Shown here piece after piece: positions 30,031 through 62,822 of a DNA stretch of 64,000 nt. The translations under genes and the position numbers were made by a program. Every line of letters starts with the position of its first letter. Positions within the stretch are counted from its first letter, which is position 1. The DNA is from Chloroflexota bacterium (lineage in GTDB: Bacteria > Chloroflexota > Anaerolineae > JAAYZQ01), in contig JAGVRI010000003.1 in assembly GCA_018606645.1 (NCBI GenBank), positions 27,322-91,321 on the forward strand. Reading direction: 5' to 3'. The notes below the pieces were generated by a model. It did no database searches and was not told where the DNA came from. It saw nothing but the letters and a program-made list of their open reading frames with translations.

Positions 30031-30131
30031 CGGTACAATCGAACTATTGGCAACATGGGCCATTTCTGCTATACTTGCACTGGAGCAAGTTCGTCTTCGG
30101 GAAGCCGGTTTCGTGGAAAAGATGGCCAGAG

Positions 30132-33406: not shown

Positions 33407-33430
33407 CAGGGGCACTGCACGGAGGGCCCA

Positions 33431-35038: not shown

Positions 35039-35227
35039 CCGCCTGACGGTTCACTCCAGGGTTGTCGCATGAAAATAGCCGGCGGCTGAAGCCGCGCCTG
35101 TCAGGCCGGCGGCCGAACGTCCCCCGGCGGGGACGCGTTCCGTCGGCGCAGGCCGACGGCCAGCCGAAGGTTCTTGAGGGGCGATTTCAATCGCGGTCTA
35201 TTATCGAGGAGCCTTTCGGCGGGTTGT

Positions 35228-35325
35228 CCGGCTGAAGCCTCGACTCCCGGATGCGGGGAGCGGTCTGTTTCGAAGGGAGGTGGAGTGGAGCCTTCAGGCG
35301 GTGGACCGGCTAAAGCCTCGACTCC
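35228..35325. repeat. family A palindromic elements: half copy (35228-35247) plus compact 44-bp copy 2 (35282-35325)
   Basis: ccggctgaagcctcgactcc then ggagtggagccttcaggcggtggaccggctaaagcctcgactcc. Confidence 0.8.
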
Positions 35326-35330
35326 TGGAT

Positions 35331-35455
35331 GCGAGGAGCGGCATTCCCGGCAACAGCGCATGAGGCCAGGGAGTTCTGGCCAATGGCGGCGATTCAAGCG
35401 GCAGGTGATCAGCGGGAATGCCTCGCCGCTACGACGTGGATGGAGAATGCACAGC
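35331..35455 (+). repeat. ~120-bp repeat family B, copy 1
   Basis: gcgaggagcggcattcccgg...ttctggccaatggcggcgattcaagcggcagg...cgggaatgcctcgccgctac...gagaatgcacagc; internal inverted repeat ggcattcc/ggaatgcc; aligns at ~75-80% with 37980-38101. Confidence 0.7.
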
Positions 35456-35479
35456 TCTATGAAGAGGATAGCACTCGAG

Positions 35480-35508
35480 TTGTAATCAAATGAATTCTGT
35501 GCTATACT
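35480..35508 (+). promoter_or_regulatory. sigma70-like promoter TTGTAA-N17-TATACT
   Basis: AT-rich island 80 nt upstream of the response-regulator gene. Confidence 0.5.
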
Positions 35509-35587
35509 AATAGCTGTCAGCGGTGCATCGGACGAGTCTCGGCAGGTTCTCGCTGAAAGCCGAGAAGGCAGGGCGGGGGTAAAGCCT

Positions 35588-36277
35588 ATGCACAGAATCA
35601 CGGTCATGTTGGTGGACGATCATCCTGTTTTCCGCCAGGGCTTGCGTCGAGTACTGGAGAGCGAAGATGACCTGGAAGTGATCGCCGAGGTGGACGATGG
35701 CCTGGAAGCCCTGCGTCTGGCCAAGGAGATGGTCCCCGATGTGATGCTGCTGGATATTAACCTACCGGGCATGAACGGCCTCCAGGTGGCCCGCGCCCTG
35801 AAAGACACCCTGCTGGAGATCAACATCATCATGTTGACCGCCTATCATGATGATCAACAGGTGTTCCATTCGATCCAGGCCGGCGCCTCGGCCTACTTTC
35901 CCAAGGATGTCAGCCCACGACGGTTGATCGAGGCGATCCGATTGGTACACCAGGGGTGTTATGTGGTCGAAGATCGGGTGCTGGAAAAGCCTCAGGTGGG
36001 CCAGTGGCTTCTCGAGCAATTTGAGCGGATCTCGCCGAACGCAGACGGGGATCTGGGCGGGCTGTTGTTGCCGTTGTCTCCGCGCGAGATGGAGATCCTG
36101 CTCTTTATCGCCCAGGGCAAGAGCAACAAGGAAATTGCGTACGAGCTGGGCATCAGTCGCCAGACGGTCAAGAACCACATGACCAGCATCCTGCGCAAGC
36201 TGGCGGTGAACGATCGCACCCAGGCGGCCATCTATGCGCTGCGCCGGGGTTGGATCCGTCTCCAGGATATTGGCTGA
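35588..36277 (+). CDS. LuxR/NarL-family response regulator (DegU-like)
   Basis: Receiver (VMLVDDHP...LLDINLPGMNG) plus C-terminal LuxR HTH (LSPREMEILLFIAQGKSNKEIAYELGISRQTVKNH). Confidence 0.9.
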   Translation: MHRITVMLVDDHPVFRQGLRRVLESEDDLEVIAEVDDGLEALRLAKEMVPDVMLLDINLPGMNGLQVARALKDTLLEINIIMLTAYHDDQQVFHSIQAGASAYFPKDVSPRRLIEAIRLVHQGCYVVEDRVLEKPQVGQWLLEQFERISPNADGDLGGLLLPLSPREMEILLFIAQGKSNKEIAYELGISRQTVKNHMTSILRKLAVNDRTQAAIYALRRGWIRLQDIG

Positions 36278-36350
36278 GGGAATGACAGATCGTCCTGTCG
36301 AGAGGGATTCATCTCTTGCCTCGGATCCTGAACCAGAAGGTTCTGAAATC

Positions 36351-37442
36351 ATGAATGTCTCGAATGAGGTGAGGTGGATGGCGGAAGAACAGGCTCAGAC
36401 CGGCATGGAACTGCTCACCGCTCTGATTCAGGAGAGCCAGAGCGACTATGAGCAGCTTCAGAAGGAACTCAAAGAGATCGATGTCCTCATCCGACAAAGC
36501 GCCACCGAGGTGGAGAAGCTGACCCAGCGCAACTCGCAGATGGGCAACCGGGTGCGCCAGATGGAGATGAACCTCGACACCTACCCCCGCAACGATATCC
36601 GCGAGATCTATCTCGCCGCCCACGAGATCCAGATGCGCCTGTTCATGATGCGCGGGCAACTGGAGCAACTGCAGAATCGCCAGCAAAGCCTGGAGCAGCA
36701 GAGCCAATACCTGGCGCGGCTGATTGACATCCTGAGCCAGATCGCGCCCTCTGACCTTGTTCGAGACGTGAACCGCGCCCATCCGGCGGTGCATAGCGAC
36801 GTGGTGCGCGTCATCGAAGCCCAGGAGAATGAACGCCAGCGGCTGGCGCGGCAGATCCATGACGGGCCGGCGCAATCGCTCACCAATCTGATCCTGCAGG
36901 CCGAGATCTGCGAGCGGCTCTTTGACACCGATCCGGTCCAGGCCCGCGTTGAACTGGGCAATCTCAAGAACTCGGTGAATGCCACCTTCCAGAAGATCCG
37001 CGAGTTTATCCTGATGTTGCGCCCGATGATGCTCGATGACCTGGGCCTCATGCCGACGCTGAAGCAGTACGTCCAGGATTTTGAGGAAAAGACGCGACTT
37101 TCCACCAGTTTGACGATCATGGGGCGTGAGAGCCGGCTTCCTTCCTACACCGAGGTGACCATCTTTCGCATGATCCAGGAATTGCTGAACAATGTGCGCA
37201 TTCATGCCCATGCCAGCCATGCCCAGGTGACCCTCGATTTTCAGGATACAATGGTCGTGGTCAGCGTCGAAGATGACGGTAGCGGCTTTGATGTGGAAGA
37301 GGTGCAGAAGGCGATCCAACAGCGGAAGGGGTTGGGGCTGCACACCATCCAGGAACGGGCCGAAATGCTGGGCGGCCGCGTCCAGTTGGACAGCCGCATT
37401 GGGCGTGGGACCCGGGTTCGGATTGAAATTCCAATAGAATAG
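36351..37442 (+). CDS. cytoplasmic sensor histidine kinase, HisKA_3 family (DegS-like)
   Basis: No TM segments; N-terminal coiled-coil region, H-box ERQRLARQIHDGPAQSL, HATPase_c; RBS GAAGG upstream of ATG 36351. Confidence 0.85.
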   Translation: MNVSNEVRWMAEEQAQTGMELLTALIQESQSDYEQLQKELKEIDVLIRQSATEVEKLTQRNSQMGNRVRQMEMNLDTYPRNDIREIYLAAHEIQMRLFMMRGQLEQLQNRQQSLEQQSQYLARLIDILSQIAPSDLVRDVNRAHPAVHSDVVRVIEAQENERQRLARQIHDGPAQSLTNLILQAEICERLFDTDPVQARVELGNLKNSVNATFQKIREFILMLRPMMLDDLGLMPTLKQYVQDFEEKTRLSTSLTIMGRESRLPSYTEVTIFRMIQELLNNVRIHAHASHAQVTLDFQDTMVVVSVEDDGSGFDVEEVQKAIQQRKGLGLHTIQERAEMLGGRVQLDSRIGRGTRVRIEIPIE

Positions 37443-37455
37443 TACTTCTGTACTA

Positions 37456-37484
37456 TTGAAAATTAGAACTAGATCAGTTATAAT
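37456..37484 (+). promoter_or_regulatory. consensus sigma70-type promoter TTGAAA-N17-TATAAT
   Basis: ttgaaa 37456-37461, 17-nt spacer, tataat 37479-37484, in a strongly AT-rich island; ~65 nt upstream of flp. Confidence 0.6.
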
Positions 37485-37551
37485 AGAAGCATCCTGGAGA
37501 TATCTGTACGTTGATACCCCGAGAATTATTAAAGAAAGGAGGTGTACCGAA

Positions 37552-37698
37552 ATGCTGTTTCTACCGCGCGAGGAAGGACAGGGGCTCGTTGAATATGCGT
37601 TGATTCTTGTTCTGGTGGCGATTGTGGTCATTGCCATTCTGCTCCTGGTCGGTCCGGCCGTGGGCAACGTCTTTAGCACCATCGTCAACGCCATCTAA
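37552..37698 (+). CDS. flp: Flp family type IVb pilin (48 aa)
   Basis: MLFLPREEGQGLVEYALILVLVAIVVIAILLLVGPAVGNVFSTIVNAI: Flp motif G/(E/Q)GxVEYALIL, hydrophobic stretch, Gly cleavage site; strong RBS AAAGGAGG. Confidence 0.85.
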   Translation: MLFLPREEGQGLVEYALILVLVAIVVIAILLLVGPAVGNVFSTIVNAI

Positions 37699-37730
37699 CG
37701 ACCGAGCGACAGCGACCCTGTCAACGAACG

Positions 37731-37770
37731 GAAGAGCCTCACCCCTCAGGTGGGGCTCTTCCCCTTTTTG
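37731..37770 (+). terminator. intrinsic terminator downstream of flp
   Basis: gaagagccucaccccucagguggggcucuuc: 8 bp + U:G + 4 bp stem, 5-nt loop, followed by CCCCUUUUUG. Confidence 0.7.
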
Positions 37771-37979
37771 CGCTAGTACCAAGAGGCTATTGTCAACCGG
37801 GTAAATTCACCGTATACTAGAAACCGATGGCAGACAGAAGGTGGACGGCGAAGCGATTTGGAATGTCGGAGCAGGAATTGCGCCCTTGCCTGGCGCAGAG
37901 GTTGAGCGGGATGGCCCGTAGCCTCCCAGGATGTCCAGCCGTGGCTCGTGGTGGGCAGGGCCGTTGGAAGGTCGGGCCT

Positions 37980-38101
37980 GGGGCGAGGCATTCCGGGGAA
38001 CGGCGTATAAGGGCAGGTGGTTCTGGCCCATCCGCGGCGATTCAAACGGTAGGCGGCCACTGGGAATGCCTCGCCCCTACAATGTCAGAGAATGCAACAG
38101 C
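37980..38101 (+). repeat. ~120-bp repeat family B, copy 2
   Basis: ggggcgaggcattccgggg...ttctggcccatccgcggcgattcaaacggtagg...gggaatgcctcgcccctac...gagaatgcaacagc; same orientation as copy 1. Confidence 0.7.
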
Positions 38102-38567
38102 CCTACCTGGTGGGAAGAGGCCCTGGCGTGAGCATCCGCTTTGGGAGGAGGGGCAGAGCCTGCTGGAAATGTCGGTGGGTCTGGTGTTCCTGCTGGGGAT
38201 CGTGCTGGTCCTGTTTGAGGGAGCATTGCTGTTTCACTCCTACATTGCCTTGCTGAATGCAGCGCGAGAAGGGGCAGTGTATGCCTCTCTCCATCCGACC
38301 ATGAGTCCGGGGACATCCGAGTATGCGCAATATGAATCGGTCACGCGCACCGAAGCAACAGCCGCCGGGTTGCTGACCGATCCGGCGTACTTTCAGATCG
38401 ACCCGCCCCAGACGCCGGAGGGCACCGACCCGTTGGATCCGATTATCGTGACGGTCCATTATCAGTTGATCAATCCGATGCAAGGCCTTATCCTTCCTTT
38501 CTTTGGACGGATGGGCTTGTTCGATAGTGTATGGATGACGGCGGCTACGGAGATGCCGATCCGGTGA
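38082..38567 (+). CDS. TadE-like pilus assembly protein (pseudopilin)
   Basis: N-terminus EEGQSLLEMSVGLVFLLGIVLVLFEG matches TadE/TadF GQxxVEFAL motif; long ORF extension back to 37827 runs through repeat B and is rejected. Confidence 0.65.
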   Translation: MSENATALPGGKRPWREHPLWEEGQSLLEMSVGLVFLLGIVLVLFEGALLFHSYIALLNAAREGAVYASLHPTMSPGTSEYAQYESVTRTEATAAGLLTDPAYFQIDPPQTPEGTDPLDPIIVTVHYQLINPMQGLILPFFGRMGLFDSVWMTAATEMPIR

Positions 38568-38625
38568 ACGGCCGGGGAGTAGAGAGTAGATGCGAATTCT
38601 TGTCTTGAGGCAGCGCGACAGCCGG

Positions 38626-39063
38626 ATGGTTGGCCAGGAAGGCCAGGCGATGACCGAATTTGCGCTTTCGATGACGTTGTTGGTCGCCCTGCTGGTGGGG
38701 ATTATCGCCCTGGCCTGGGTCGGCTTTTGTTATGTGAGCATCACCAGCGCGGCGCGCATGGGAACGCGGCACATGATCACCTATCCGACCAGCCCCCAGG
38801 ATCCGCACCGCTTTGCCAATGTGGATGCGGAGATCACCTATGTGGTCACCAGTTCGATGCCGATGCTGGACTGGCGCCAGGCGACGATCATCATCCTGCC
38901 CCAACCGCCGGCCAGTCGGCTCTCAGGCACCCAGGTCTCGGTCCAGATCGTGTATCCGATGAATACGCCGACGATCCGAATCCCGTATGGGTTGAGGGAG
39001 GGATCTTTCGTGCTGTTACCGCCGATTACGCTGAATGCCACATCGCGGATGCGGCTGGATTGA
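38626..39063 (+). CDS. TadE-like pilus assembly protein (pseudopilin)
   Basis: GQEGQAMTEFALSMTLLVALLVGIIAL; alternative start 38590. Confidence 0.65.
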   Translation: MVGQEGQAMTEFALSMTLLVALLVGIIALAWVGFCYVSITSAARMGTRHMITYPTSPQDPHRFANVDAEITYVVTSSMPMLDWRQATIIILPQPPASRLSGTQVSVQIVYPMNTPTIRIPYGLREGSFVLLPPITLNATSRMRLD

Positions 39064-39126
39064 GGAGGGCCGGCCCCAATGGGCAGGCCTGACTCGGACT
39101 CGTATGGACAGAAGAGGAGGTGAACG

Positions 39127-40200
39127 ATGTCTCATCGAGAAAAAGAAAGTGGTCAGTCAATTGTAATCATTGCGTTTGCCATCATGATGCTTTTGGCGCT
39201 GGTGGCGATCGTCGTGGATGTGGGCAATGCCTATGCCCACCGCCGGATGGTGCAAAATGCGGTGGACGCGGCTGCCCTGGCCGGGGCGCGGAAACTGGCC
39301 GACCGGATGGTGGCGAGTAACCCGGACAGCGTGAAACATATCCACGTGTCCTATCAGATCAGGCGCTATGCGCAAGAGAACGGCCTGCCGGTGAGCGAAC
39401 CCGGCATCCTCCAGGCGTGGTTCATTGACAAGAACGGGAATCGGCTCGAACAGGTGCGGCCCAGCCCGGATTTCATCAATCCCCAGGCCAGAGGGGTTGA
39501 GGTCATTGGCAAGCTGCCCTTTACGACCTATTTTGCCCACCTGCTTGGTTTCTCGACGATGGAGGCGGCTACCTCCGCCCGCGCCTGGGTGCTGCGCGGT
39601 CCCTGCAATGGGGATAGTCTGTTCCCGGTAGGGATCGCTCAGAGTATCTTTGGAGGCGGTGGCGTTCCTCAACCTGGGACAACCTACACCATGTGGGACA
39701 AGACCAAGGAGGCGCCCGGTCAATTCGGCTGGCTGTACTGGAAGGACGGGAACGGTGTGGTGCGGGGAACCGAGCCGCCGCAGCAGAACTCGAACACGAC
39801 CAATCTGGCGGCAAACATCCTGGACACCTCACGCAGCGGTGCGTGGCGGGTGAATGATTGGGTGCACGGCAGCAGCGGCGTCAGCTTCCAGCCGGTCCTG
39901 GATGAGCTGGAACAGAGGATGGGTTCTTCCCACACCGTCATCGTCCCGATCTACGATCAGGTTTCGGGAACGGGGGACAACGCCGTGTACCGAATCGTGG
40001 GCTTTGGCGCCTTTCAGATGACCTGCGCCTATAGCTCAAAGAGCCATTATGTGGAAAATCCGAGTGGGTCGTGCGCTCCTTGTCGGGAGGAAGACAAACC
40101 GTGCATCCGAGGGACGTTCGTGCGGATGATCGAACCGAGCGGCGACGATGGGTGCCTGGACACCGGCGTCGTCATCCCTTCGTTCCGGATGCCCAAATAG
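39127..40200 (+). CDS. TadG-like / Tad_N-domain pilus assembly protein
   Basis: N-terminus ESGQSIVIIAFAIMMLLALVAIVVDVGNAYAHRRMVQNAVDAAALAGA typical of putative Tad-like Flp pilus-assembly (PF13400); RBS GGAGGTG. Confidence 0.7.
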   Translation: MSHREKESGQSIVIIAFAIMMLLALVAIVVDVGNAYAHRRMVQNAVDAAALAGARKLADRMVASNPDSVKHIHVSYQIRRYAQENGLPVSEPGILQAWFIDKNGNRLEQVRPSPDFINPQARGVEVIGKLPFTTYFAHLLGFSTMEAATSARAWVLRGPCNGDSLFPVGIAQSIFGGGGVPQPGTTYTMWDKTKEAPGQFGWLYWKDGNGVVRGTEPPQQNSNTTNLAANILDTSRSGAWRVNDWVHGSSGVSFQPVLDELEQRMGSSHTVIVPIYDQVSGTGDNAVYRIVGFGAFQMTCAYSSKSHYVENPSGSCAPCREEDKPCIRGTFVRMIEPSGDDGCLDTGVVIPSFRMPK

Positions 40201-40215
40201 CCCTTTCTCGATGAT

Positions 40216-40251
40216 CCTGAGCGAGGGCGGGCGTTCCCCCCCTCGCTCAGG
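40216..40251. repeat. perfect 12-bp stem / 12-nt loop hairpin after TadG-like gene
   Basis: cctgagcgaggg-cgggcgttcccc-ccctcgctcagg; no downstream T-run. Confidence 0.5.
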
Positions 40252-40420
40252 ACCTGGGCCAACCGGCCGCGGGCATGAATCCGCATCCTCATGCTCCCGC
40301 GGTCAAATCACAAACCAGGCAATGGCCAGGAAAAGTGTTCCGCCGTACCCCCTGGCGCGATCAGGAAGGAAGCTGAAACCCATGCAAGCGACTGTCAACT
40401 GCCCGAGGAGAAGAAACCCG

Positions 40421-43400
40421 ATGTTCCGGTCTCTGCTGCTCGCCGTGCCCCTGGGACTTCTGGGAGTGCTTGTCTTTGTCCTCTCCTCCAACGCGTACGT
40501 CACCCAGAAGGGCGAGACCACGCTGGTGGATTTCGATAGCGGCACCTTTATCTACACCGGGTTGCTGGATATCCCCGAGCAGGGGATCGATAGTGTGCAG
40601 TTGCTGCCCATCGGATTGACCGGGGACTGGGAGGTGGCCAATCGGTCGTTGCCGCTTCGGCTGACGGACCATGCCGTGGTTGCGCACGGGGACGCCATCT
40701 ATGTGGTCGGTGGCACTGACGAGGAGTATGCCGTCCATGATGAGGTATTCATGACCCAAATGTCCCTGGACGGACAGCTCTCCCCCTGGCAATCCCAGAA
40801 CCCACTGCCGGACCCTCGCTCTGCCGCCGCGATCGCGACCTACCGATTGGACGCGGACAATTCATTCCTGTATGTGCTCGGAGGAATCGGATCTGACTTT
40901 GGTGCCACCGACACGGTATACTATGCGCCCATCAATGATGAGACGGGAGAGCTCGGGGCCTGGCAACTGGACAGTCAAAGCCTCCCCAATCCGGTCTACT
41001 ATGCGGCTGCGGTCGAGCATGATGGCGCCCTGTATGTCATCGGCGGGGCGGGTGATACCGTCTTTGATCAGGTGTACTATGCGACGGTCCAGGAGGATGG
41101 TTCATTGGGTTCGTTCATCGCCACCTCCTCGCTTCCCGAACCGCTGTACGACGGTCTGGCCATCGTCTATGAGGGGGAGCCGGTCGATACGCTGTACTAT
41201 ATCGGCGGTCGGAACGCCATTACCTCTACTTTCAAGGTCTATTTTGCCGACTTTGTGCCCGGTGGAGGCTTGAGCGCCTGGCAACTTTCTCAAGGCAATC
41301 TGCCGGGTCACCTCTTTGGCCACGACGGCACCTTGCTGAGCGGGGAGATCATCCTCACTGGGGGGATTGTGGATTCCATCAATCCATACGTCGGCATTTC
41401 CAACACCGTGGAAGCGGCTCTGGTGGATCCTGGCAACCCGGCATTTCGCCTGTACGACTGGTGCCTGGGGGTGCCGCCTCCGACCTGTACCATCGGCGCC
41501 TGGCAAACCGGGAGTCTACTCCCGGACGTGCGCGCCCGTCATGGCATGGCCTCCGGCCACGGGCATCTCTACGTCCTGGGTGGAGTGGATTCCACCCAAT
41601 ACCCACGAGATACCATCTATGTGGGTTCTGTCACCGGCTTTGGCGCGCGCTACTCGCCGGAGGGGTATTACATTTCTGACCCGATTGACCTGGGGCCGGG
41701 GGTGGCCCTTCGGCGGCTGAGTTGGGGGACGACCATTCACGATCCTGCTCACATGGGGCTGGAGATGCAGTTCCGCCACACCAGCGACGGTCAAATCTGG
41801 TCCGAGTGGTCCACACCCATTCCTTCCATCAGCGGCACGAACCAGATTGACCTGGATCCGCCACTGACCGGGGTCCACTATCTCCAGTATCGGGCCCACC
41901 TGACCACGACTGTCTCCCATGCGTCTCCGCTCCTGGATTGGGTGGAGATCTACTATGAGGTTCCGGATCCAGAGGTTGCGGTGTATAAGGACACCGGTGG
42001 GGTGATGACCGTGACTCTGGGCGACCACCTGGAATATACCATCTACTACACCAACTATGGCGGGTGGACGGCCGAGAATGTGGTCCTCACCGAGACCCTG
42101 CCGGCGCACACGAGCTACGTAGGAGGGTCAGGTTGGCATCAGGTGGCCGGTACCAATATGTATACCTATGACGTCGGCAACCTGGCGCCCGGAGCGAGCG
42201 GCAGCGTTCCCTTCCCGATCAAGGTGAATGACGACGTGCCTCTCGAGACCCGGTATCTCACCAATACCATCGAAATCGCCTACCCTCCCATGCTCGACGC
42301 GCTGGCGGAGTGGGTGACCGATCCGGAACCGGGCAATAATACCTTTGCGCTGGCGACCCGCTTTAGCCCGTATGCGATCACCGTTGCCAAAGACTCGGAG
42401 CCACCGCCGGGCGAACCGGTCGCTCCCGGCGAGATCATCACCTATATCCTGACCTACTCCAACCCGGTGGGAGCGGTCAGCGTTCCGCAGGCCTACCTCC
42501 TCGATGCGCTCCCGGAGCATGTCAGCTATATTCCGGGCTCCATCTTTGGGCCCGGGGCGGACGCCAGCAACCCACGAGAGCTCCGCTGGGACCTCGGCGT
42601 CGTCGGACCTGGGGAGACGTATCAGGTGGGCTATGCGGTCCAGGTGGATTCCTCGACTCCGTTGGGAACTGTCCTGTCGAATACGGCCACCCTGTACAGC
42701 GATATCGGTCCTCCCAGGACGAGCAATTGCGTCGAGACTCTGGTCGTGGACAAGACGTACCGGGTAGAGGTCAACAAGGAGGCGGTGCCCTCTCCGGGGA
42801 GCACCGTGGCTCCTGGCTCGCTGATCCACTACACTCTGTATTACACCAACGCCGGCTTTATCGCGGCCAGCCAGGCGGTGTTGACCGAGGTCTTTGATCT
42901 GAACCAGAGCTACTCGCTGGTGTCGGCCGATCCGCCGCCGGACGTGATGCCCAATGTCTGGCACCTGGGCGCGCTGGGACCTGGCCAGAAGGGGGCGATT
43001 GACCTGGTGGTCCAGCTCGACGACGTGTTGCCCAGTCACTGGATCGTCAGCAACCAGGCCGTGATCGATAGCCCGGAAGGGGTGCCATCGTATACTCCGG
43101 TCATCACGCACCTGGTCATGAATCCACCGGAGGTCCCCCTGGTTGATCTGGTGGTGGGGAAGGTGCGCATGGAGCCTGCTGAACCCAAGCCGGGCGAACC
43201 GGTGGCGTTCTACGTAACGATCTCCAACACAGGCAACCTGAACGCCAGCGGCTATTTCTGGGTGGAGTTGTACGTCAAGTCTGCGCCCTCGGAACCTCCC
43301 CGTGGGCCCTCTGACCATGATCAGGGGTACTGCCTGAACGGGTGCTCGATCGTGCGCCCGTACCATCTGGTGCTGGTCAACAGTCTGGGGAAGGGGGCGA

Positions 43401-43621
43401 AGAAGGAGATCAAGTTCGCAAACGAGAAGTTGTTCTTCCCCACGGAGGGCGCCTATGATGTGTATGTGCAGGTGGACGTGGCCTTTGACGATCCACGTTA
43501 CAGCCCATATTGGGGCTTTTATCCGGAACACCATGAAGGCAACAACATCGTCCACGAAACGGTGTTCATTGGCGGGGTACCGCGATACTATTTGCCCGCG
43601 GTGTACAAGCGGTGGCCATAG
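40421..43621 (+). CDS. large secreted/anchored protein with Kelch-like beta-propeller and multiple DUF11 domains (candidate pilus-associated adhesin)
   Basis: 1066 aa; signal/anchor MFRSLLLAVPLGLLGVLVFVL; repeated ...YVxGG... blades (AIYVVGG, FLYVLGG, ALYVIGG, LYYIGG, LYVLGG), then several DUF11-type repeats (GDxLEYTIYYTNxG..., GEIITYILTYSN, GSLIHYTLYYTNAG); RBS GAGGAG. Confidence 0.7.
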   Translation: MFRSLLLAVPLGLLGVLVFVLSSNAYVTQKGETTLVDFDSGTFIYTGLLDIPEQGIDSVQLLPIGLTGDWEVANRSLPLRLTDHAVVAHGDAIYVVGGTDEEYAVHDEVFMTQMSLDGQLSPWQSQNPLPDPRSAAAIATYRLDADNSFLYVLGGIGSDFGATDTVYYAPINDETGELGAWQLDSQSLPNPVYYAAAVEHDGALYVIGGAGDTVFDQVYYATVQEDGSLGSFIATSSLPEPLYDGLAIVYEGEPVDTLYYIGGRNAITSTFKVYFADFVPGGGLSAWQLSQGNLPGHLFGHDGTLLSGEIILTGGIVDSINPYVGISNTVEAALVDPGNPAFRLYDWCLGVPPPTCTIGAWQTGSLLPDVRARHGMASGHGHLYVLGGVDSTQYPRDTIYVGSVTGFGARYSPEGYYISDPIDLGPGVALRRLSWGTTIHDPAHMGLEMQFRHTSDGQIWSEWSTPIPSISGTNQIDLDPPLTGVHYLQYRAHLTTTVSHASPLLDWVEIYYEVPDPEVAVYKDTGGVMTVTLGDHLEYTIYYTNYGGWTAENVVLTETLPAHTSYVGGSGWHQVAGTNMYTYDVGNLAPGASGSVPFPIKVNDDVPLETRYLTNTIEIAYPPMLDALAEWVTDPEPGNNTFALATRFSPYAITVAKDSEPPPGEPVAPGEIITYILTYSNPVGAVSVPQAYLLDALPEHVSYIPGSIFGPGADASNPRELRWDLGVVGPGETYQVGYAVQVDSSTPLGTVLSNTATLYSDIGPPRTSNCVETLVVDKTYRVEVNKEAVPSPGSTVAPGSLIHYTLYYTNAGFIAASQAVLTEVFDLNQSYSLVSADPPPDVMPNVWHLGALGPGQKGAIDLVVQLDDVLPSHWIVSNQAVIDSPEGVPSYTPVITHLVMNPPEVPLVDLVVGKVRMEPAEPKPGEPVAFYVTISNTGNLNASGYFWVELYVKSAPSEPPRGPSDHDQGYCLNGCSIVRPYHLVLVNSLGKGAKKEIKFANEKLFFPTEGAYDVYVQVDVAFDDPRYSPYWGFYPEHHEGNNIVHETVFIGGVPRYYLPAVYKRWP

Positions 43622-43651
43622 TGACCGGCTCAATTCGGGTTGAGGAGAAAA

Positions 43652-43680
43652 TTGCCATTCACGCAATTTTCTGGTAGAAT
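43652..43680 (+). promoter_or_regulatory. candidate promoter TTGCCA-N17-TAGAAT with overlapping inverted repeat
   Basis: Inverted repeat gaaaattgc-cattcac-gcaattttc (43648-43672) overlaps the spacer; ~240-nt leader to cpaB. Confidence 0.4.
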
Positions 43681-43918
43681 AGAATCTAGTGCTCACCAAT
43701 GCGGCTTCAGGCAAATGAGATTCCTCGATGATCGGTTCCTGGCCGGAAGGGCGAGCGACTGGATGCTTTCGCAGGCGGTCCGAGGGTAGCGCGGTTCCGC
43801 CCGAGTGGCGGTCACTGCTGGCCATGGAGGAGATCATACACGGAGACAGGCCGATCCGATGGTTGATGGGGGGACGACCAGACCTGTCTAGCGCAGAGCA
43901 AAACATGGAGGAGAACCG

Positions 43919-44842
43919 ATGCGTCGTGGTAGAATCCTGATCTTGTTGGGCCTGATCCTGGCGATTGGCACCGCTGCGATCGTGTTCATCATGCTCCAGG
44001 GGGCAGCCGGCAGCAAGGGAACGGTAGAGGTAGAGCGGGAAGAGGTGGTGGTCGCCATTCAACCCATCCCCGAGGACGAGCCGGTGGAAGGGCGGATCGA
44101 GATTCGGGCCATGCCCAAAGAATCGATACCGGTGAACGCCCTCCGTTCTCTGGACGAAGCAACGGGAATGCTGGCCGCCGGGCCGATTCCGCAGGGCACC
44201 ATACTCCAACCCGATCTCTTGATCAGCCCGGCGGAGCTGATGCAGCAGGGCAAGTTGGGGAAATTGATCGAACCTGGGTTTGTCGCCGTGGCCTTTCCGA
44301 TCGATGAGCTTTCCAGCGTATCGTACGGAATCCAGCCTGGCGATCATGTGGATGTACTGATGAGCTTCTGGTTCATCGACCTTGACGCGGAAACTCAGAG
44401 CAAGGCGCCGATCTGTCCGCCCAGATGTGAGGCCGGGGCGGAGCAGACCCAGGCCGTTGTGGAGCAGCGTCCGCGGCTGGCTGCGCAACTGACGCTCCAG
44501 GATGCTGCTGTGCTTGGGGTTGGACGATGGAGCACCCAACCCGCAGTTACGGAAGCGGCTGCCACGCCGGAACCGCGAGAAGGTGAGGAAGCGGCTGTCG
44601 AACTACCTGAGTATATTACGCTCATGCTCACCCCTCAGGATGCCCTGGTCTTAAAGTTCGCCCGGGAATCGGGGGCCAGGATCGACCTGGCCGTCCGCGC
44701 CAAGGATGATCACCAGCAGTTCGTCACCCAGCAAGTCACCCTGGACTATATCCTGGCCCGCTTTGGCGTCTCCCTGCCGGCCCGGCAGCCCTACACCATC
44801 GAAGGGCTCGGGCAGGCGCCGCCGACCAGCCCGGAGGAGTGA
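43919..44842 (+). CDS. cpaB: Flp pilus assembly protein CpaB/RcpC
   Basis: N-terminal TM anchor then SAF domain (IPQGTIL...) and RcpC-like C-terminus. Confidence 0.8.
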   Translation: MRRGRILILLGLILAIGTAAIVFIMLQGAAGSKGTVEVEREEVVVAIQPIPEDEPVEGRIEIRAMPKESIPVNALRSLDEATGMLAAGPIPQGTILQPDLLISPAELMQQGKLGKLIEPGFVAVAFPIDELSSVSYGIQPGDHVDVLMSFWFIDLDAETQSKAPICPPRCEAGAEQTQAVVEQRPRLAAQLTLQDAAVLGVGRWSTQPAVTEAAATPEPREGEEAAVELPEYITLMLTPQDALVLKFARESGARIDLAVRAKDDHQQFVTQQVTLDYILARFGVSLPARQPYTIEGLGQAPPTSPEE

Positions 44843-44926
44843 TACCTGGTTTGCATGGTTGGGCGATGGAATCAGCCGGGGACGGACCGATGGTTGATGA
44901 TATCGGGGAAAGTGACTTGAGCAAGC

Positions 44927-46234
44927 GTGAGCGGGAAAATGGCGTCTACACCGACTGAAAAGATCCGTCTGCTCATCGTTGACGATATCCCAGAGACGCG
45001 GGAGAATCTGCGTAAGTTGCTCTATTTTGAGCCGGACATCGAGATCGTGGGCATGGCTTCGGATGGACGGTCGGCCATTGAGGAAGCCAAGAGGCTGCAA
45101 CCTCACATCGTGCTGATGGACATCAACATGCCGGACATGGATGGGATTACGGCCAGTCAGAAGATCAGCCAGGTAGCACCCATGTGCCAGGTGATCATGA
45201 TGTCGGTTCAGAGTGAGGCCGATTACCTGCGCCGTTCGATGCTGGCCGGTGCGACGGATTTCCTGACCAAGCCGTTCACCAGCGAAGAACTGACGAGCAG
45301 CATTCGCCGGGTCTATGAGATGGGGGCCAGTCGCCGCCTGGCCATGCCGGTCGTTCAGGAAGTCGAAGAAGGCGCTCCTGGATTGACTCCATCCGCCCGA
45401 CGCCCCCGAAAGGGAGGGAAGCTCTTGCTGGTGTACAGCCCGAAGGGAGGGACAGGCTGCAGCACGGTGGCGACCAATCTGGCCATCGCCCTGCACCAGG
45501 TGACAGCCCAGAAGGTTGCCCTGGTGGACGCCAGTTTCCAATTTGGCGACGTTGATGCGCTCCTGAACCTGCAGAGCAACCGTTCTATCGCGGATGCGGT
45601 CAGTCAGATCAAGACCCTGGATACGATGCTCCTCAGCGCTGTGCTCTCTGCCCACTCTTCGGGCATTCGGGTGCTGGCTGCGCCTCCCGGACCGGAGATG
45701 GCGGAGGCGATCAAAGCCGAGGATGTGAAAACGATTCTGACGCTGATGATCCAGGAATTTGACTTGATTGTGGTGGATTCGTGGAGCAATCTTGATGACA
45801 TGGTCCTGACGCTGATGGACCTGGCCGACCGCATCCTGGTGGTGATGACGCCCGAAATCCCTTCGATCAAGGACACCAAGTTGTTCCTTGAGATCGCCGA
45901 TGCGTTGCAATTCCCGCAGGAGTGCATTGACCTGATTCTCAACAAGGTCGTCCTGCGGGATGGCATTCGCGCGGATCAAATTGAGAGCAATTTGAAGCAC
46001 AAGATCCTGATCCAGTTGGACTTTGAACCCAAGGGCGTGCGACAGGCCATTAACCAGGGCCTGCCCTTGATCCTGGCCGAGCCCAAGCACCCTCTTTCGC
46101 AAAAGTTCCTGGCTCTGGCCCGGGAAGAGGTAGCGGTTCTGGAACCTCAGCCGCGAGGTGAAGCAGAGAAAGAGATCCATGAGGCAAAATCGGAACGTAA
46201 ACCGAGGCCCAGATTGTTTGGTCGGATGAAGTGA
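44927..46234 (+). CDS. cpaE: pilus assembly protein CpaE/TadZ (receiver domain + ParA/MinD-like ATPase)
   Basis: N-terminal receiver-like domain (RLLIVDDIPETRE), deviant Walker A KGGTGCSTVATNLA. Confidence 0.85.
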   Translation: MSGKMASTPTEKIRLLIVDDIPETRENLRKLLYFEPDIEIVGMASDGRSAIEEAKRLQPHIVLMDINMPDMDGITASQKISQVAPMCQVIMMSVQSEADYLRRSMLAGATDFLTKPFTSEELTSSIRRVYEMGASRRLAMPVVQEVEEGAPGLTPSARRPRKGGKLLLVYSPKGGTGCSTVATNLAIALHQVTAQKVALVDASFQFGDVDALLNLQSNRSIADAVSQIKTLDTMLLSAVLSAHSSGIRVLAAPPGPEMAEAIKAEDVKTILTLMIQEFDLIVVDSWSNLDDMVLTLMDLADRILVVMTPEIPSIKDTKLFLEIADALQFPQECIDLILNKVVLRDGIRADQIESNLKHKILIQLDFEPKGVRQAINQGLPLILAEPKHPLSQKFLALAREEVAVLEPQPRGEAEKEIHEAKSERKPRPRLFGRMK

Positions 46235-46255
46235 TGTTCAGAAAAGAGGTGGAAT

Positions 46256-47644
46256 ATGTCGTTATTAAGACGGATTGAGAGGAACCAGCAGGTGGCGGTG
46301 GATCAACTGACACCCGTGGCAGAGCATTCCACCCGGTTGGAGGAATTGCGCATTCGTCGTGCACCGGCTGCGCCGGCGCGGGATGCCTTTCAGGACTTGA
46401 AGAGTCGGATCCATAACAAGCTGCTGGCTGAACTCGACCCCAAAATGGATGTCTCCAAGACGGATGAAGTGCGCCAGACGATCGAAGAGATGTATGATGC
46501 GATGCTGGCGCAGGAGAATCTGATCCTGGGTCGAGCGGACCGCCAGCGTCTGTTAGAGCAGATTGTGGCCGAGATCCTGGGCTATGGTCCCATCGAGCCG
46601 TTGCTGGCCGATGATACGATCACTGAGATCATGGTGAACGGACCCAACGCCGTCTATATTGAACGAGCCGGACGGATCGAGCCCACCGACATCCGATTCG
46701 AAAACGATGAGCATGTGTTGCGGATCATTGACCGGATTGTCTCACCGTTGGGACGCCGGATTGATGAAAGCCAGCCGTATGTGGATGCGCGTCTGCCGGA
46801 TGGTTCGCGGGTCAATGCGGTCATTCCACCTCTATCGCTGATCGGCCCGGTGTTGACCATCCGCAAATTTGCTCGGATCCCGATCACGGCCCAGACGCTG
46901 ATTGAGCTGGGGACGATTACCCCGGAGGCCCTCGAGTTCTGCAAGGCTTGCGTCCAGGCCAAGCTCAATATGGTGATCTCCGGAGGCACTGGCTCCGGAA
47001 AGACGACCACGCTGAACGTCTTTTCTGCCTTTATTCCTAATGACGAACGGATCATCACCATCGAAAATGCGGCGGAGCTTCAGCTCCAGCAAGATCACGT
47101 CATCCCGCTGGAAACGCGGCCGCCCAACGTCGAAGGCAAGGGTGAGATCACCATGCGGCAGCTCGTGATTAACAGTCTGCGGATGCGCCCGGATCGGATC
47201 ATTGTCGGGGAATGCCGGGGGGCGGAGGCCCTGGACATGTTGCAGGCCATGAATACGGGCCACGACGGGAGCATGACCACAGCTCACTCGAACAGTCCAC
47301 GCGATACGCTGGCCCGTCTGGAAACGATGGTGTTGATGGCCGGCATGGACCTGCCGTTGCGAGCGATCCGCGAACAGATCGCTTCCGCGCTGCACCTGGT
47401 TGTGCATCAGGAGCGGATGCGCGATGGAAGCCGCAAGATCACCAAGATCACCGAGGTCCAGGGGATGGAAGGCGACGTGATCGTCATGCAGGACATTTTC
47501 ACCTTTGAGCAGCAAGGGATCGAGGGGGGGAAGGTGATCGGCCGGCTCAAGCCCACCGGAATTCGCCCCAAATTTATGGAGATCATCGAGGCGGCCAATA
47601 TCCACCTGCCGCCTACGATCTTTGGCATGGGAAGACGGTACTAA
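46256..47644 (+). CDS. cpaF: Tad secretion ATPase CpaF/TadA
   Basis: Walker [11 protein letters not shown]2SS/T4SS ATPase motifs ([18 protein letters not shown]). Confidence 0.9.
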
Positions 47645-47659
47645 CAGGGTAATCCGAGG

Positions 47660-48634
47660 ATGGGGTCCTTACAACCTTTGATGAATCCGGTCGTATTGGC
47701 CCTACTGGCGGCAGTCGCTGTGTTCCTGCTCTTCGCCGGCCTCCACTGGATTGGAATGGCCCGCGAGCAGGCGGTTGAGGAGCGGCTGGATCGGTACGGC
47801 GGTCGCGCGGAGGAGGAGAAGAAAAAGCCCAAGCGGGAAAAGCGGCGGGCTGCTGTCGAGGGCATCGAGGAGATTGTATCGCGCCGGAGCTTTGCCGCCG
47901 GTGTGCGGGAGGACCTGGCCCAGGCCGATCTGAAACTGCGCGTGGCCGAATATCTGGGACTGATCGCGCTGAGCACGTTCGTTTTCTTTTTGGTGGCTCG
48001 CTGGATCTTTGACTCGGTCCTGCTGGGCCTGGTGTTCGGCGTCGTCGGCTTTTTCGCGCCGCGCTTTTATGTGGACCTGCGCAAGAGACGTCGTCTAAAC
48101 GCCTTCAATGACCAGTTGGGAGACTGTATCACCCTGTTGGCCAATTCCCTCCGTTCGGGCTTTAGCATCGTCCAGTCCATGGATACGGTGGCTCAGCAGT
48201 TGCCCAATCCGATCGCGGCCGAGTTCCGCCGCGTCACCCAGGAAATCGGACTCGGACTCCACTACGAAGAGGCCCTCAACAACATGCTGCGGCGCGTTCC
48301 CAGTGAAGACCTGGACCTGATGATCACCGCCATCAACATTCAGGGCAAGGTGGGCGGCAACCTGGCCGAGATCCTGGACACCATCGGACATACCATCCGC
48401 GAGCGGGTGCGGATCAAGGGGGAGATCCGGGTCCTTACCGCCCAACAGATGATTTCGGGGTACATTCTCACCGGCTTGCCGGTTGCTCTGGGGTTGGTGT
48501 TATATCTGATCAACAAGACCTACATCAGCCGCATGTTCAGTGAGCCGTGTGGATGGATCATGCTCGGTGTGGCGTTCAGCATGCTGGTCTTTGGCTTTCT
48601 GGCCATCCGCAAGATCGTCAGCATCGAGGTGTAG
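47660..48634 (+). CDS. tadB: Tad inner-membrane platform protein TadB
   Basis: T2SSF domain, TM segments N- and C-terminal. Confidence 0.8.
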   Translation: MGSLQPLMNPVVLALLAAVAVFLLFAGLHWIGMAREQAVEERLDRYGGRAEEEKKKPKREKRRAAVEGIEEIVSRRSFAAGVREDLAQADLKLRVAEYLGLIALSTFVFFLVARWIFDSVLLGLVFGVVGFFAPRFYVDLRKRRRLNAFNDQLGDCITLLANSLRSGFSIVQSMDTVAQQLPNPIAAEFRRVTQEIGLGLHYEEALNNMLRRVPSEDLDLMITAINIQGKVGGNLAEILDTIGHTIRERVRIKGEIRVLTAQQMISGYILTGLPVALGLVLYLINKTYISRMFSEPCGWIMLGVAFSMLVFGFLAIRKIVSIEV

Positions 48635-48697
48635 CATGAGGTCCACCAATGGGCGGCTGGAAGGGATTGAGCCTGTGACGAGATTGGGAGAGAACTG

Positions 48698-49630
48698 ATG
48701 CCCCCAGTCATAATGTTCGGCATTGCCTTTATGGTGTTCCTGTCTCTCATGCTCATCATCGTGGGCATTGCTTCTCCACGGCCCGCCGATCAGGTGGAAA
48801 GCCGGTTGATGGAGTACGGGAGCCGGCCGATGACGCTGGAAGAGATCGAGCTGGCTCAACCGTTCAGCCAACGGGTCCTTATCCCGATGGTCCGGGCCAG
48901 CGCAGAATTTGTGTCTCGTTTCACTCCGCAACACAGCCTGGAAGCGACGCGCCACAAGCTGGATCTGGCCGGCAACCCCAACAATTGGAGCGCCACCGAT
49001 TTCTTGGGCATTCGCGGCCTGGCTGCGTTTGTGTTAGGGGCCCTTACCTTTGTGTTGACGATGCTGGCCAACACGGCATTTACCCAGCGCCTGCTGTTCA
49101 CGGGGGTCATGGGGCTGCTGGGCTTTTTTCTACCCGTGATCTGGTTGGGGCGACGGATCCGAAGCCGTCAAGCGGAGATTGTCAAGACTCTGCCGGATGC
49201 GCTGGACCTGCTCACCATCAGTGTGGAGGCGGGTCTGCCGTTCGATGGGGCGATGCAACGGGTTGCCGAGAAATGGGATAATGAGATCAGCAAAGCGTTT
49301 CGGCGCCTGCTCGCCGAGATGCGCATGGGCAAGTCCCGCCGTGAGGCCCTCCGGGATATGGCCGACCGGATGGACGTGCCGGATGTGACCAGCTTTGTGG
49401 CCGCGTTGATTCAGGCCGATCAACTGGGTATCAGTATTGCCAAGATCCTGCGCATCCAGTCCGAGCAGATGCGGATCAAGCGCCGTCAGCGGGCTGAGGA
49501 AAAGGCGCAGCAGGCGCCGATCAAGATGCTCATCCCGATGACGTTTCTGATCTTTCCGACCATTCTGATCGTCATCCTGGGACCAGCGATCCTGATTCTC
49601 AAGAATTCGCCTATCTTCCGGGTGATGTGA
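48698..49630 (+). CDS. tadC: Tad inner-membrane platform protein TadC
   Basis: T2SSF domain; paralogous to TadB. Confidence 0.8.
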   Translation: MPPVIMFGIAFMVFLSLMLIIVGIASPRPADQVESRLMEYGSRPMTLEEIELAQPFSQRVLIPMVRASAEFVSRFTPQHSLEATRHKLDLAGNPNNWSATDFLGIRGLAAFVLGALTFVLTMLANTAFTQRLLFTGVMGLLGFFLPVIWLGRRIRSRQAEIVKTLPDALDLLTISVEAGLPFDGAMQRVAEKWDNEISKAFRRLLAEMRMGKSRREALRDMADRMDVPDVTSFVAALIQADQLGISIAKILRIQSEQMRIKRRQRAEEKAQQAPIKMLIPMTFLIFPTILIVILGPAILILKNSPIFRVM

Positions 49631-49693: not shown

Positions 49694-50467
49694 GTGACGA
49701 TCTGCGCAACCAAGAAGTCACTGGTTCAGACCAGACACAGGCAGCTTGCCGTGTGGAAGGATGCCATCCTTGATCTGCTGTTTCCTCCCCATTGTGTCGT
49801 CTGCCGCCGTCTGGGGAGCTGGCTATGCCAGGCGTGCCAGGACAAGATTGAGCTGATTGTGCCGCCGTTATGTCTGCGGTGTGGGCTGCCTCTGAAGGGG
49901 GCCGCCGGCCCACTCCGTTCGTGGGTGGTTTGTATGCACTGCCAGGGGAGAACGACAGAACTCGACGGATTGCTGGCCTATGCATTCCACACCGATCCGT
50001 TACGGCAGATCATTCACGAATTCAAGTACCGCGATCTCCAGAGTCTGGCCAGACCGCTGGGCCAGATGATGGCCCAGGGATGGAGGGTGTTGGCTCCGTC
50101 TGAGTGGGAAGTGGATGTCATCGTCCCTGTGCCTCTGCACCCGACACGGCAACGGCAACGCGGCTACAATCAGGCGGCGCTCCTGGCACGCGAACTCGGC
50201 GTCCACATCCAGCGCCCGGTTGTGGAAGATGTCCTGGTGAGGTCCAGACCAACGGTACCCCAGGTTGAGCTGAGCTTCCAGGAGCGAATGGCCAACATTC
50301 AGGGCGCTTTTCAGTGTAACGATTCAGCGCTGGCTGGTCAACGGGTGTTGCTGGTGGACGACGTATGTACGACCGGCGCCACGTTGGAGGCGGCCGGAGC
50401 TGCATTACGGCGAGGGAAGGTTGCCGCGATATGGGGCTATACCCTGGCCCGCGCCAAACCTGAGTGA
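49694..50467 (+). CDS. ComF family protein (phosphoribosyltransferase domain, ComFC-like)
   Basis: N-terminal 4-Cys zinc finger (CxxC...CxxC) and C-terminal PRTase motif VLLVDDVCTTGAT. Confidence 0.8.
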   Translation: MTICATKKSLVQTRHRQLAVWKDAILDLLFPPHCVVCRRLGSWLCQACQDKIELIVPPLCLRCGLPLKGAAGPLRSWVVCMHCQGRTTELDGLLAYAFHTDPLRQIIHEFKYRDLQSLARPLGQMMAQGWRVLAPSEWEVDVIVPVPLHPTRQRQRGYNQAALLARELGVHIQRPVVEDVLVRSRPTVPQVELSFQERMANIQGAFQCNDSALAGQRVLLVDDVCTTGATLEAAGAALRRGKVAAIWGYTLARAKPE

Positions 50468-50502
50468 AACAGGAAGCTATATTGTCAGTAAGGAGAGTGG
50501 AA

Positions 50503-62577: not shown

Positions 62578-62822
62578 GACTCACTCCCGGTTTTGAACTA
62601 ATCCTACCAAAAGAAATGGTAACATAGAGGATGGTCCCTGTCAAATAGGTTTGTTGCCGGGGCAGACAACTCTTCAGAAGGCTTGACTGTCAAGAAATTT
62701 GGTTGGCCTCTTTTTGCGTGGTATAATGTAAGCTGGTGTGAGTGGATTCGGCTGGATCAAGGGATGTGAAAGAGATAGGGCGATCATCGTCTGGAAGAAA
62801 ACGGGATTCAGGACAGGTTTCA

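Follow-up and report, generated by a model that had tools for sequence, protein, structure and literature searches.

Gene content and organization of the locus

The window analyzed here, the whole of a 64-kb stretch of contig JAGVRI010000003.1 from a Chloroflexota bacterium, encompasses at positions 35480-49630 a Tad/Flp pilus locus of twelve genes, all on the same (+) strand. The gene order is response regulator, histidine kinase, flp, tadE, tadE, tadG, a giant Kelch/CLIPPER gene, cpaB, cpaE, cpaF, tadB and tadC. All assignments are backed by Pfam/NCBIfam, and these hidden Markov model searches support the Tad assignments of a preceding sequence-only reading of the window, which had listed the regulator, the kinase, flp, two TadE, TadG, a Kelch/DUF11 protein and cpaB through tadC; every one of these genes is present. 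We interpret the locus, with good but not full confidence, as a secretin-less, monoderm-type Tad/Flp (type IVc) pilus locus of Anaerolineae that consists of four transcription units. It is the lineage-typical Tad architecture of an Anaerolineae clade and a real variant of a known system. The window has a G+C content of about 62%, its composition does not point to recent acquisition of an island, and a search of the window for tRNA and integration signatures found none.

The closest relatives of CpaE, counting one genome per species, are encoded in metagenome-assembled genomes (MAGs) of Thermoflexales, Anaerolineae and Chloroflexia, with 41-51% identity; a protein identical to the 1066-aa giant protein is present in NCBI (P0001), and an 84% identical relative is labelled Anaerolineae bacterium. 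Given the relatives of CpaE and of the giant protein, we assign the host to Anaerolineae/Chloroflexota. The window proteins were mapped onto 80 related genome loci picked by CpaE similarity, so that all frequencies given below are those of a biased census. The identical 48-aa Flp was also found in 71 blocks of a public metagenome collection, in contexts that are merely 65-95% identical to the window at the DNA level (individual contigs and loci are designated by L numbers: 93-95% for L083, 87% for L089 and 65-80% for the others). In these contexts, the order is regulator, kinase, flp, tadE, tadE, tadG, Kelch/CLIPPER gene, in most of them a gene for a CarboxypepD_reg protein, then cpaB, REC-cpaE and cpaF. 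The sequence-only reading regarded a DegSU-like two-component system and a 1066-aa beta-propeller/DUF11 protein inside the operon as non-canonical, and this holds in comparison with proteobacterial models, but within Anaerolineae the arrangement is standard and conserved.

The view of the locus as a single operon does not stand. Four promoter-like sites (at 35480, 37456, 37790 and 43652), detected in a scan of 15.6 kb, coincide exactly with the four intergenic gaps and delineate four units, with predicted transcription starts at about 35515, 37491, 37825 and 43687. The first reads as the regulator pair and the second as flp by itself, flanked by a strong promoter and a terminator. The third reads as tadE-tadE-tadG together with the Kelch/CLIPPER gene, and the fourth as cpaB-cpaE-cpaF-tadB-tadC, probably with read-through into comFC-hpf. 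The long 5' regions were also considered as possible riboswitches or leader RNAs, and this was rejected: Rfam searches of these regions were empty both at gathering scores and at E up to 1, and the folding z-scores were 0.71 and 0.65.

A regulator pair and a conserved palindrome at the pilin promoters

The first unit starts with a TG-extended promoter-like site (TTGTAA-17-TATACT, 35480-35508, 9/12 match), followed by the gene for a NarL/LuxR-family response regulator that consists of a receiver (REC) and a GerE helix-turn-helix domain (35588-36277; Response_reg 2.4e-30, GerE 6.8e-23). The kinase gene that follows (36378-37442, with the longest open reading frame starting at 36234; relatives are called at 352-358 aa) encodes a DegS coiled-coil domain (2.3e-12, 47.1 bits against a cut-off of 27.6), HisKA_3 (6.3e-16) and HATPase_c (9.8e-17). 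A search for transmembrane-like or other hydrophobic segments in the kinase found none, so that it is cytoplasmic. A soluble kinase with a DegS N-terminal region, HisKA_3 and HATPase paired with a NarL/LuxR regulator is the composition of DegS-DegU systems, and the label "DegS/DegU-like" is apt at the level of family resemblance. It does not imply orthology, given that neither protein reaches the cut-off of any NCBIfam equivalog: the nearest models are NarL, MctR and MctS, all matched well below threshold, and the top similarity of the regulator, to NarL, scores 161.6 bits, under the cut-off of 250.

Among the loci with at least 5.5 kb of sequence before cpaE, the regulator and kinase lie directly upstream in 23/54, 18 of which also contain flp; in 18 further loci of the Chloroflexales type, tadG is present and no two-component system is adjacent. 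The regulator is unusually conserved, at 86-88% identity between relatives in which the giant protein reaches only 32-58%.

The flp gene (37552-37698), preceded by the ribosome-binding site AAAGGAGG, encodes the 48-aa major pilin, MLFLPREEG/QGLVEYALILVLVAIVV, in which a hydrophobic helix follows the textbook prepilin site G/XXXXEY, kept here as EEG/QGLVEY; the predicted mature protein is about 39 aa long. The Flp_Fap match (E 4.9e-6, 26.7 bits) is below the gathering score of 32.2. As the sequence-only reading had indicated, flp has a consensus promoter and a terminator of its own. The promoter TTGAAA-17-TATAAT (37456-37484, 11/12 match) is the best promoter-like site in the scanned region, and the intrinsic terminator (37730-37762), a 14-bp stem with 9 G-C pairs and a T run, is kept in L083 and L089.

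Only one base upstream of the flp -35 element lies a 14-bp perfect inverted repeat, AGTAC-TTCT-GTACT (37441-37454, centered at about -43.5), which we propose as the operator of the regulator. In the alignment of flp upstream regions, a palindrome with the 14-bp consensus AGTAC-N4-GTACT abuts the -35 element in 14 of the 15 loci linked to the two-component system, as GTACTATTG or GTCCTATTG; in the same alignment, it is absent from the sigma-factor variant L085 and from two loci that lack the regulator pair. A degenerate form of the motif has 18 matches in 1.49 Mb searched on both strands (about 3 Mb), compared to about 1.4 expected by chance (our own calculation); these matches come in part from near-identical contigs and represent about nine independent lineages. 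Fourteen of them are located 78-127 nt before the flp ATG, and two, both perfect palindromes, occupy the position of the tadE promoter in L088 and L090. When up to three mismatches to the strict motif are allowed, the window has 6 matches versus 0.78 expected, one of which is at the tadE promoter of the third unit, AGTACCAAGAGGCTATTGTCA-17-TATACT (37775-37818), identified by the promoter scan and by comparison with relatives; at this promoter, the operator is half conserved. The layout of this promoter, TAGTACC-N4-SSCTATTGYCA, recurs in L091, L092, L093 and L095 as the left half-site plus the CTATTG junction, and additional copies of the motif were found in L091, L093 and L095.

The recognition helix of the regulator is ISRQTVKNHMTSIL in the clade with GTAC operators and ISHQTVKNHMT in the clade with GTCC operators, a covariation of helix and half-site that fits direct readout. 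Judging from these sequence comparisons, the AGTAC-N4-GTACT palindrome is likely the binding site of the NarL-type regulator, and the position of the site suggests activation rather than repression. There is no AGTAC palindrome beside the promoter of the regulator gene itself, so that autoregulation is not indicated. The description of the two-component system as dedicated to the pilus is supported by its synteny with flp in the 23/54 loci and by the conserved palindrome at the flp and tadE promoters. A candidate third operator before cpaB, at 43576, was rejected because it falls within the conserved C-terminal coding region of the giant protein and is not conserved in L083 or L089, and because the actual cpaB promoter lacks the palindrome.

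Several side observations concern flp. The pilin is 100% identical across lineages (L081-L090) whose flanking DNA is only 65-80% identical. In L085 (3028-13585), the same 48-aa Flp is encoded next to an extracytoplasmic function (ECF) sigma factor and a DUF5667 protein that replace the two-component system; this locus has no cpaF between cpaE and tadB, and a gene for a TPR protein follows tadC. Loci of the Limnocylindria type contain two to four tandem flp paralogues instead.

Minor pilins

The third unit encodes three pseudopilins with TadE, TadE and Tad domain matches that all exceed the gathering scores, as is characteristic of TadE/TadF/TadG proteins. TadE-like pseudopilin 1 (37914-38567; Pfam TadE 1.1e-5) has a long basic leader ending in EEG/QSLLEM, a motif that is kept in all relatives, upstream of the start chosen by the gene caller. 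The first ATG of the long open reading frame is not borne out as the start of this gene: a start at 37827, which would imply a leaderless mRNA, was rejected because the substitutions relative to L089 are unbiased by codon position (19/14/19), and the segment 37827-37961 shows no codon-position bias. Considering the sequence conservation, the most likely start is the ATG at 37914, the alternative being the one at 38082. TadE-like pseudopilin 2 (38590-39063; TadE 3.8e-8) has the leader QEG/QAMTEF. The TadG-like pseudopilin (39127-40200), with a Tad N-terminal domain (5.5e-11), is a short form, lacking the VWA domain present in many relatives; TadG relatives range from 357 to 787 aa, and some contain VWA, CarboxypepD_reg or SdrD_B domains. 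Flp (EEG/QG), TadE1 (EEG/QS) and TadE2 (QEG/QA) share a leader junction with Glu at +5, whereas the junction of TadG, SG/QS, lacks the +5 Glu.

Compared with L083 and L089, the alignment shows an in-frame insertion of about 146-156 bp in the TadE1 leader (37962-38108) that is a copy of a repeat. The repeat, of about 120-150 bp, has copies at 37987-38105 and 35340-35459 (also 35057-35462) that are 77% identical; the copy in the TadE1 leader is absent from the 93-95% identical L083, relative to which the window has about 370 extra bp before the regulator gene. This small two-copy repeat looks like a mobile repeat akin to miniature inverted-repeat transposable elements (MITE-like).

A giant secreted Kelch/CLIPPER protein

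The last gene of the minor-pilin unit (40421-43621) encodes the 1066-aa protein with Kelch, DUF11 (CLIPPER), DUF7927 and CARDB domains identified by Pfam. We found about 77 homologues with the Kelch plus CLIPPER layout, and those with taxonomic names all come from Anaerolineae. The alignment contains a conserved signal-peptidase site, ANA/Y, and a near-invariant Leu-Pro among the last residues. The AlphaFold model, with a mean predicted local distance difference test (pLDDT) score of 89.8, consists of a small N-terminal domain, a Kelch propeller, a beta-sandwich, a chain of Ig-like domains and a disordered C-terminal tail, in that order. In Foldseek searches, integrin alpha ectodomains come first overall and Kelch domains are the matches for the head; the likeness to integrin alpha, which also has a propeller head on Ig-like legs, is architectural only (TM-score 0.2, about 10% identity) and does not amount to homology. 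The overall picture is that of a secreted protein in which a propeller head sits on a stalk of Ig-like domains and the C-terminus forms a conserved, disordered tail.

Beta-propellers are known from another pilus system, the type IVa pili: PilY1 is a large, Sec-secreted, non-pilin beta-propeller protein that is encoded at the end of a minor-pilin operon. The giant protein resembles PilY1 in being a large secreted propeller protein with its gene at the end of a minor-pilin operon, although its placement at the tip would follow from gene position only. It differs in that the propeller is of the Kelch type, is N-terminal and is followed by an Ig-like stalk, and no PilY1/PilC family appears among its Pfam matches, so that homology to PilY1 is not indicated. 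According to work cited in PMC12075869, PilY1 is displayed at the pilus tip together with minor pilins; TadE/F/G are thought to form functional tip complexes (PMC12075869).

We favor the interpretation of the giant protein as a pilus-associated adhesin that docks by its conserved tail. A serious rival, although one we consider somewhat unlikely, is that it is a co-regulated, independent fibrillar adhesin or envelope component, co-transcribed with the minor pilins but never touching the pilus. Indeed, the protein has no pilin-type leader and a Sec-type signal peptide instead, and the combination of signal peptide, globular head and tandem stalk of CLIPPER-type, CnaA-like Ig domains is the one by which fibrillar adhesins are recognized. 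DUF11 has been renamed CLIPPER, an isopeptide-stabilized stalk domain of fibrillar adhesins, and its repeats are typical stalks of stand-alone adhesins of this class (bioRxiv 10.1101/2025.04.25.650565); moreover, a recent preprint describes a DUF11 protein that forms pilus-independent grappling hooks in Litorilinea, a member of Chloroflexota (bioRxiv 10.1101/2025.08.19.671072). However, in contrast to other CLIPPER adhesins, no anchor domain such as LPXTG or OmpA was recognized in the giant protein: examination of the Pfam matches, a transmembrane scan and the model found neither an anchor family nor a C-terminal transmembrane segment, so that the protein would need a partner to stay on the cell. 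Furthermore, homologues from 100% down to 30% identity (sampled at 48, 45, 41, 32 and 30%) are each encoded between tadG and cpaB, a constancy that would be difficult to account for if the protein had no functional tie to the Tad system.

In most relatives, an extra gene is located between the giant gene and cpaB (L081:16032-16823, L091:13368-14219, L092:14331-15020, L093:11333-12094 and L095:11040-11780) and encodes a protein with a signal peptide, a Pro/Thr-rich linker and a CarboxypepD_reg domain. The window, L083 and L089 lack this gene altogether, so that cpaB is preceded by a 232-nt leader; the possibility of a decayed copy at this position was rejected because tblastn found nothing between the giant gene and cpaB.

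Assembly machinery and a canonical receiver in CpaE/TadZ

The machinery unit is preceded by the promoter TTGCCA-17-(TG)GTAGAAT (43652-43680), identified by the promoter scan. Its pattern, TTGCnnTTC...TTTTCTGGTAnAAT, is conserved in ten relatives, with no palindrome. The unit encodes the Tad core, that is, CpaB/RcpC, TadZ/CpaE, TadA/CpaF and two T2SSF proteins. CpaB/RcpC (43919-44842) contains an N-terminal transmembrane segment, SAF and RcpC domains (RcpC 2.4e-15; TIGR03177 101 bits, cut-off 71). The secretion ATPase CpaF/TadA is encoded at 46256-47644 (T2SSE 1.2e-64; TadA-family TIGR03819 8.6e-104), and the platform proteins are the polytopic TadB (47660-48634; T2SSF 1.9e-19) and TadC (48698-49630; T2SSF 8e-20).

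CpaE/TadZ (44927-46234, with a probable ATG at 44939) consists of a receiver (Response_reg 2.1e-29) and a ParA/MinD-type ATPase (ParA 3.2e-12, with an additional AAA_31 match), the latter with a deviant Walker A motif, KGGTGCST. The closest solved structures are those of CheY proteins (about 1e-20 for the receiver) and of the ParA-family ATPase 3EA0. The assignment as CpaE had been made in the sequence-only reading, which did not mention the full canonical receiver: the match covers the entire Pfam Response_reg model, and the acidic pocket, phospho-acceptor Asp, Ser/Thr and Lys (D19, D20, D65, S93 and K115) are invariant in 81/81 sequences, with overall identity of only 41-51%. TadZ/CpaE of Aggregatibacter, Eubacterium rectale and Caulobacter similarly combine an N-terminal receiver fold with a ParA/MinD-like ATPase whose Walker A motif is deviant, and are encoded between cpaB and cpaF. 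TadZ receivers have been described as atypical domains used for protein interactions (bioRxiv 10.64898/2026.07.08.737194); the phospho-acceptor chemistry that an atypical receiver would lack is retained here. The simplest reading of the conserved residues is that this TadZ/CpaE can be phosphorylated.

Absence of secretin, TadD and prepilin peptidase

Among the annotated genes of the window, no members of the Secretin, TPR/TadD or Peptidase_A24 families were found, and the 61 remaining open reading frames of at least 100 aa in the window encode no secretin, TadD-like protein or A24 peptidase. The window thus lacks the RcpA/CpaC secretin and the TadD/RcpB outer-membrane parts that characterize diderm Tad systems, in support of the monoderm-type, secretin-less interpretation already offered in the sequence-only reading. 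The window encodes no A24 prepilin peptidase (TadV/CpaA), and none was found within 10 kb in the relatives; a scan of the window and 92 loci with the GxGD[VAILFM]K motif of A24 peptidases, which is a weak test, gave no match. In the absence of a linked gene, the prepilin peptidase must be encoded elsewhere; in other systems, tadV is known to be unlinked or PilD to be shared.

The lack of a secretin in the window agrees with the absence reported across the phylum: a MacSyFinder census of 3,780 Chloroflexota genomes identified Tad loci in 1,234, and the Tad and type IVa systems of this phylum are all without secretins (PMC12488501). Other papers describe rcpC-tadZABC, tadEEG and flp in Chloroflexales (PMC7332563) and a tad cluster and pili in Litorilinea (bioRxiv 10.1101/2025.08.19.671072). 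The Tad pili of Chloroflexus, Roseiflexus and Litorilinea, members of a phylum regarded as monoderm, share with the present locus flp, tadE/E/G, rcpC/cpaB, tadZ/cpaE, tadA/cpaF, tadB and tadC and the lack of a secretin. The Tad core itself is accordingly already known for Chloroflexota, and what is new here are the operator, the canonical TadZ receiver, the architecture of the giant protein and the four units. Term searches of passages of these papers returned no mention of the flanking DegS/NarL pair, the operator, the canonical TadZ receiver or the Kelch/CLIPPER gene. The Chloroflexales-type loci in our comparison contain tadG and DUF11-like genes and, unlike the present locus, no adjacent two-component system.

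Regulation of tad loci by an adjacent two-component system has precedents in Proteobacteria. PprAB of Pseudomonas aeruginosa is a two-component pair that adjoins the tad locus and activates flp/tad transcription. In Pectobacterium, the kinase/regulator pair ECA0785/0786, likewise encoded beside tad, has been experimentally shown to activate flp/tad transcription (PMC3767616). The Pectobacterium pair is of the OmpR/BaeS type and belongs to a diderm with a secretin, in contrast to the cytoplasmic DegS-like kinase, NarL-type regulator and predicted 5-4-5 palindrome at the -35 element in the present case.

Genomic surroundings and alternative functions

Directly downstream of tadC, and possibly co-transcribed with it, are genes for a comFC-like protein (DZR_2 plus phosphoribosyltransferase) and hpf (49694-51063); among the related loci, tadC is followed directly by comFC in 32/53, and HPF follows in 27/53. 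The comFC-hpf(-secA) neighborhood is old and conserved in monoderm bacteria, so that the adjacency may be positional; a SecA fragment is located at the end of the window (62742-63998). The proximity of comFC, 63 nt downstream of tadC here, and the established role of Flp pili in natural transformation of the monoderm Micrococcus luteus (PMC4322843) suggest that the locus could chiefly encode a DNA-uptake (competence) pilus rather than one for adhesion or motility. We consider this alternative quite unlikely given that, in addition to the possibly positional adjacency, the window contains no comEA, comEC or dprA, and the large adhesin-like protein and the VWA-type TadG of relatives point to adhesion.

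Upstream of the regulator gene, the region 26325-35038 (+) encodes five consecutive polytopic membrane proteins, two of the PMT_2 family and three without a Pfam family. That the two-component system controls this GT-C/PMT_2 cluster (envelope glycosylation) and neighbors flp only by synteny appears very unlikely: PMT_2 and unknown membrane proteins do precede the regulator pair in 19/21 loci with enough upstream sequence, and the motif recurs with two mismatches at 30032, where one of the membrane-protein genes begins, but this copy is not conserved in relatives, no conserved copy was found before the membrane-protein genes in other loci, the conserved operator is at the flp and tadE promoters, and the pair still adjoins flp where the glycosyltransferase cluster is absent (L002 and L004).

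Two further genes of the window, outside the pilus locus, deserve mention. The 573-aa protein encoded at 15186-16907 (+) has the full three-domain set of a eukaryote-type topoisomerase IB of the long form (Topoisom_I_N 5.5e-53, Topoisom_I 7.9e-62 and Topo_C_assoc 3.6e-12). It has more than 5,800 relatives, the top 120 of which are about 67-100% identical, the named ones among them coming from Anaerolineae MAGs. Among prokaryotes, the long form was seen only in Thaumarchaeota according to a 2016 paper (PMC4824112), so that these proteins may represent a conserved bacterial clade of long topoisomerase IB. The 942-aa protein encoded at 52602-55430 (+) has as its sole Pfam match an ILEI domain (interleukin-like inducer of the epithelial-mesenchymal transition/FAM3) near the C-terminus (7.8e-17), which is unusual in a bacterium.

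A model of pilus regulation and assembly

In the secretin-less Tad system that we propose, the cytoplasmic DegS-type kinase would phosphorylate the NarL-type regulator, the dimer of which would bind AGTAC-N4-GTACT abutting the -35 element and activate the flp and minor-pilin/giant-protein promoters. The machinery operon, with its conserved extended -10 promoter that lacks the palindrome, would be expressed independently. Flp, TadE1 and TadE2 (EG/Q) and TadG (SG/Q) would be cleaved by the unlinked A24 prepilin peptidase, CpaF would power assembly on the TadB/TadC platform, and CpaB would form an envelope ring. CpaE/TadZ would position or license the machine, a step that the canonical receiver would make phosphorylation-dependent, and the secreted Kelch/CLIPPER protein, made together with the tip pseudopilins, would be a pilus-associated surface adhesin. 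A more elaborate version, which we consider speculative and rather unlikely, combines gating by phosphorylation at two levels, of the regulator and of the TadZ/CpaE receiver, by the DegS-like or a second kinase, with a PilY1-like tip adhesin that docks its C-terminal tail onto TadE/TadG.

Several points weigh against this model. Beyond what is established, namely the gene content, conservation, motifs and fold model, we infer from sequence the partner choice of the kinase, activation as opposed to repression, and the contact between the giant protein and the pilus. The giant protein has neither a pilin-like N-terminus nor a recognized anchor, its tie to the pilus being gene position alone. The correlation between the recognition helix and the operator is essentially one clade-level change rather than a series of independent events, and the operator at the tadE promoter of the window has a degenerate right half, with 3 mismatches. 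The required prepilin peptidase is not encoded in the window or near the locus in relatives, so that completeness of the system is assumed; also, the 80 loci were chosen by CpaE similarity, and the frequencies are therefore not unbiased. With respect to CpaE, the canonical receiver is also retained in the 18 Chloroflexales-type loci, where no kinase is adjacent. The alpha-1 positions of receivers usually set partner specificity, and these differ between the regulator and CpaE (V-F-G-R-V vs E-T-N-K-L), so that CpaE may be served by another kinase; the difference neither proves nor excludes a single kinase that may act on both receivers.

Many Chloroflexota have no pili other than Tad pili, which are believed to underlie the adhesion, aggregation and gliding of these abundant, filamentous organisms. 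The locus described here includes conserved add-ons for which we found no description: a regulator pair with a predicted DNA target, a probably phosphorylatable positioning ATPase and a large propeller-and-stalk surface protein. Each of these provides a testable handle. The first is a regulator with a defined candidate operator, through which pilin and tip genes would be expressed; the second is a receiver that looks phosphorylatable in TadZ, a protein whose receivers have so far been regarded as inert modules for interaction; and the third is a conserved protein with a propeller and a stalk, linked to the tip-pilin operon, which may form the adhesive end of a monoderm Tad pilus. The locus overturns no current view of Tad pili and extends those views to a poorly studied phylum; if the proposed role of the TadZ receiver is correct, assembly of the machine itself would be an output of a two-component system.

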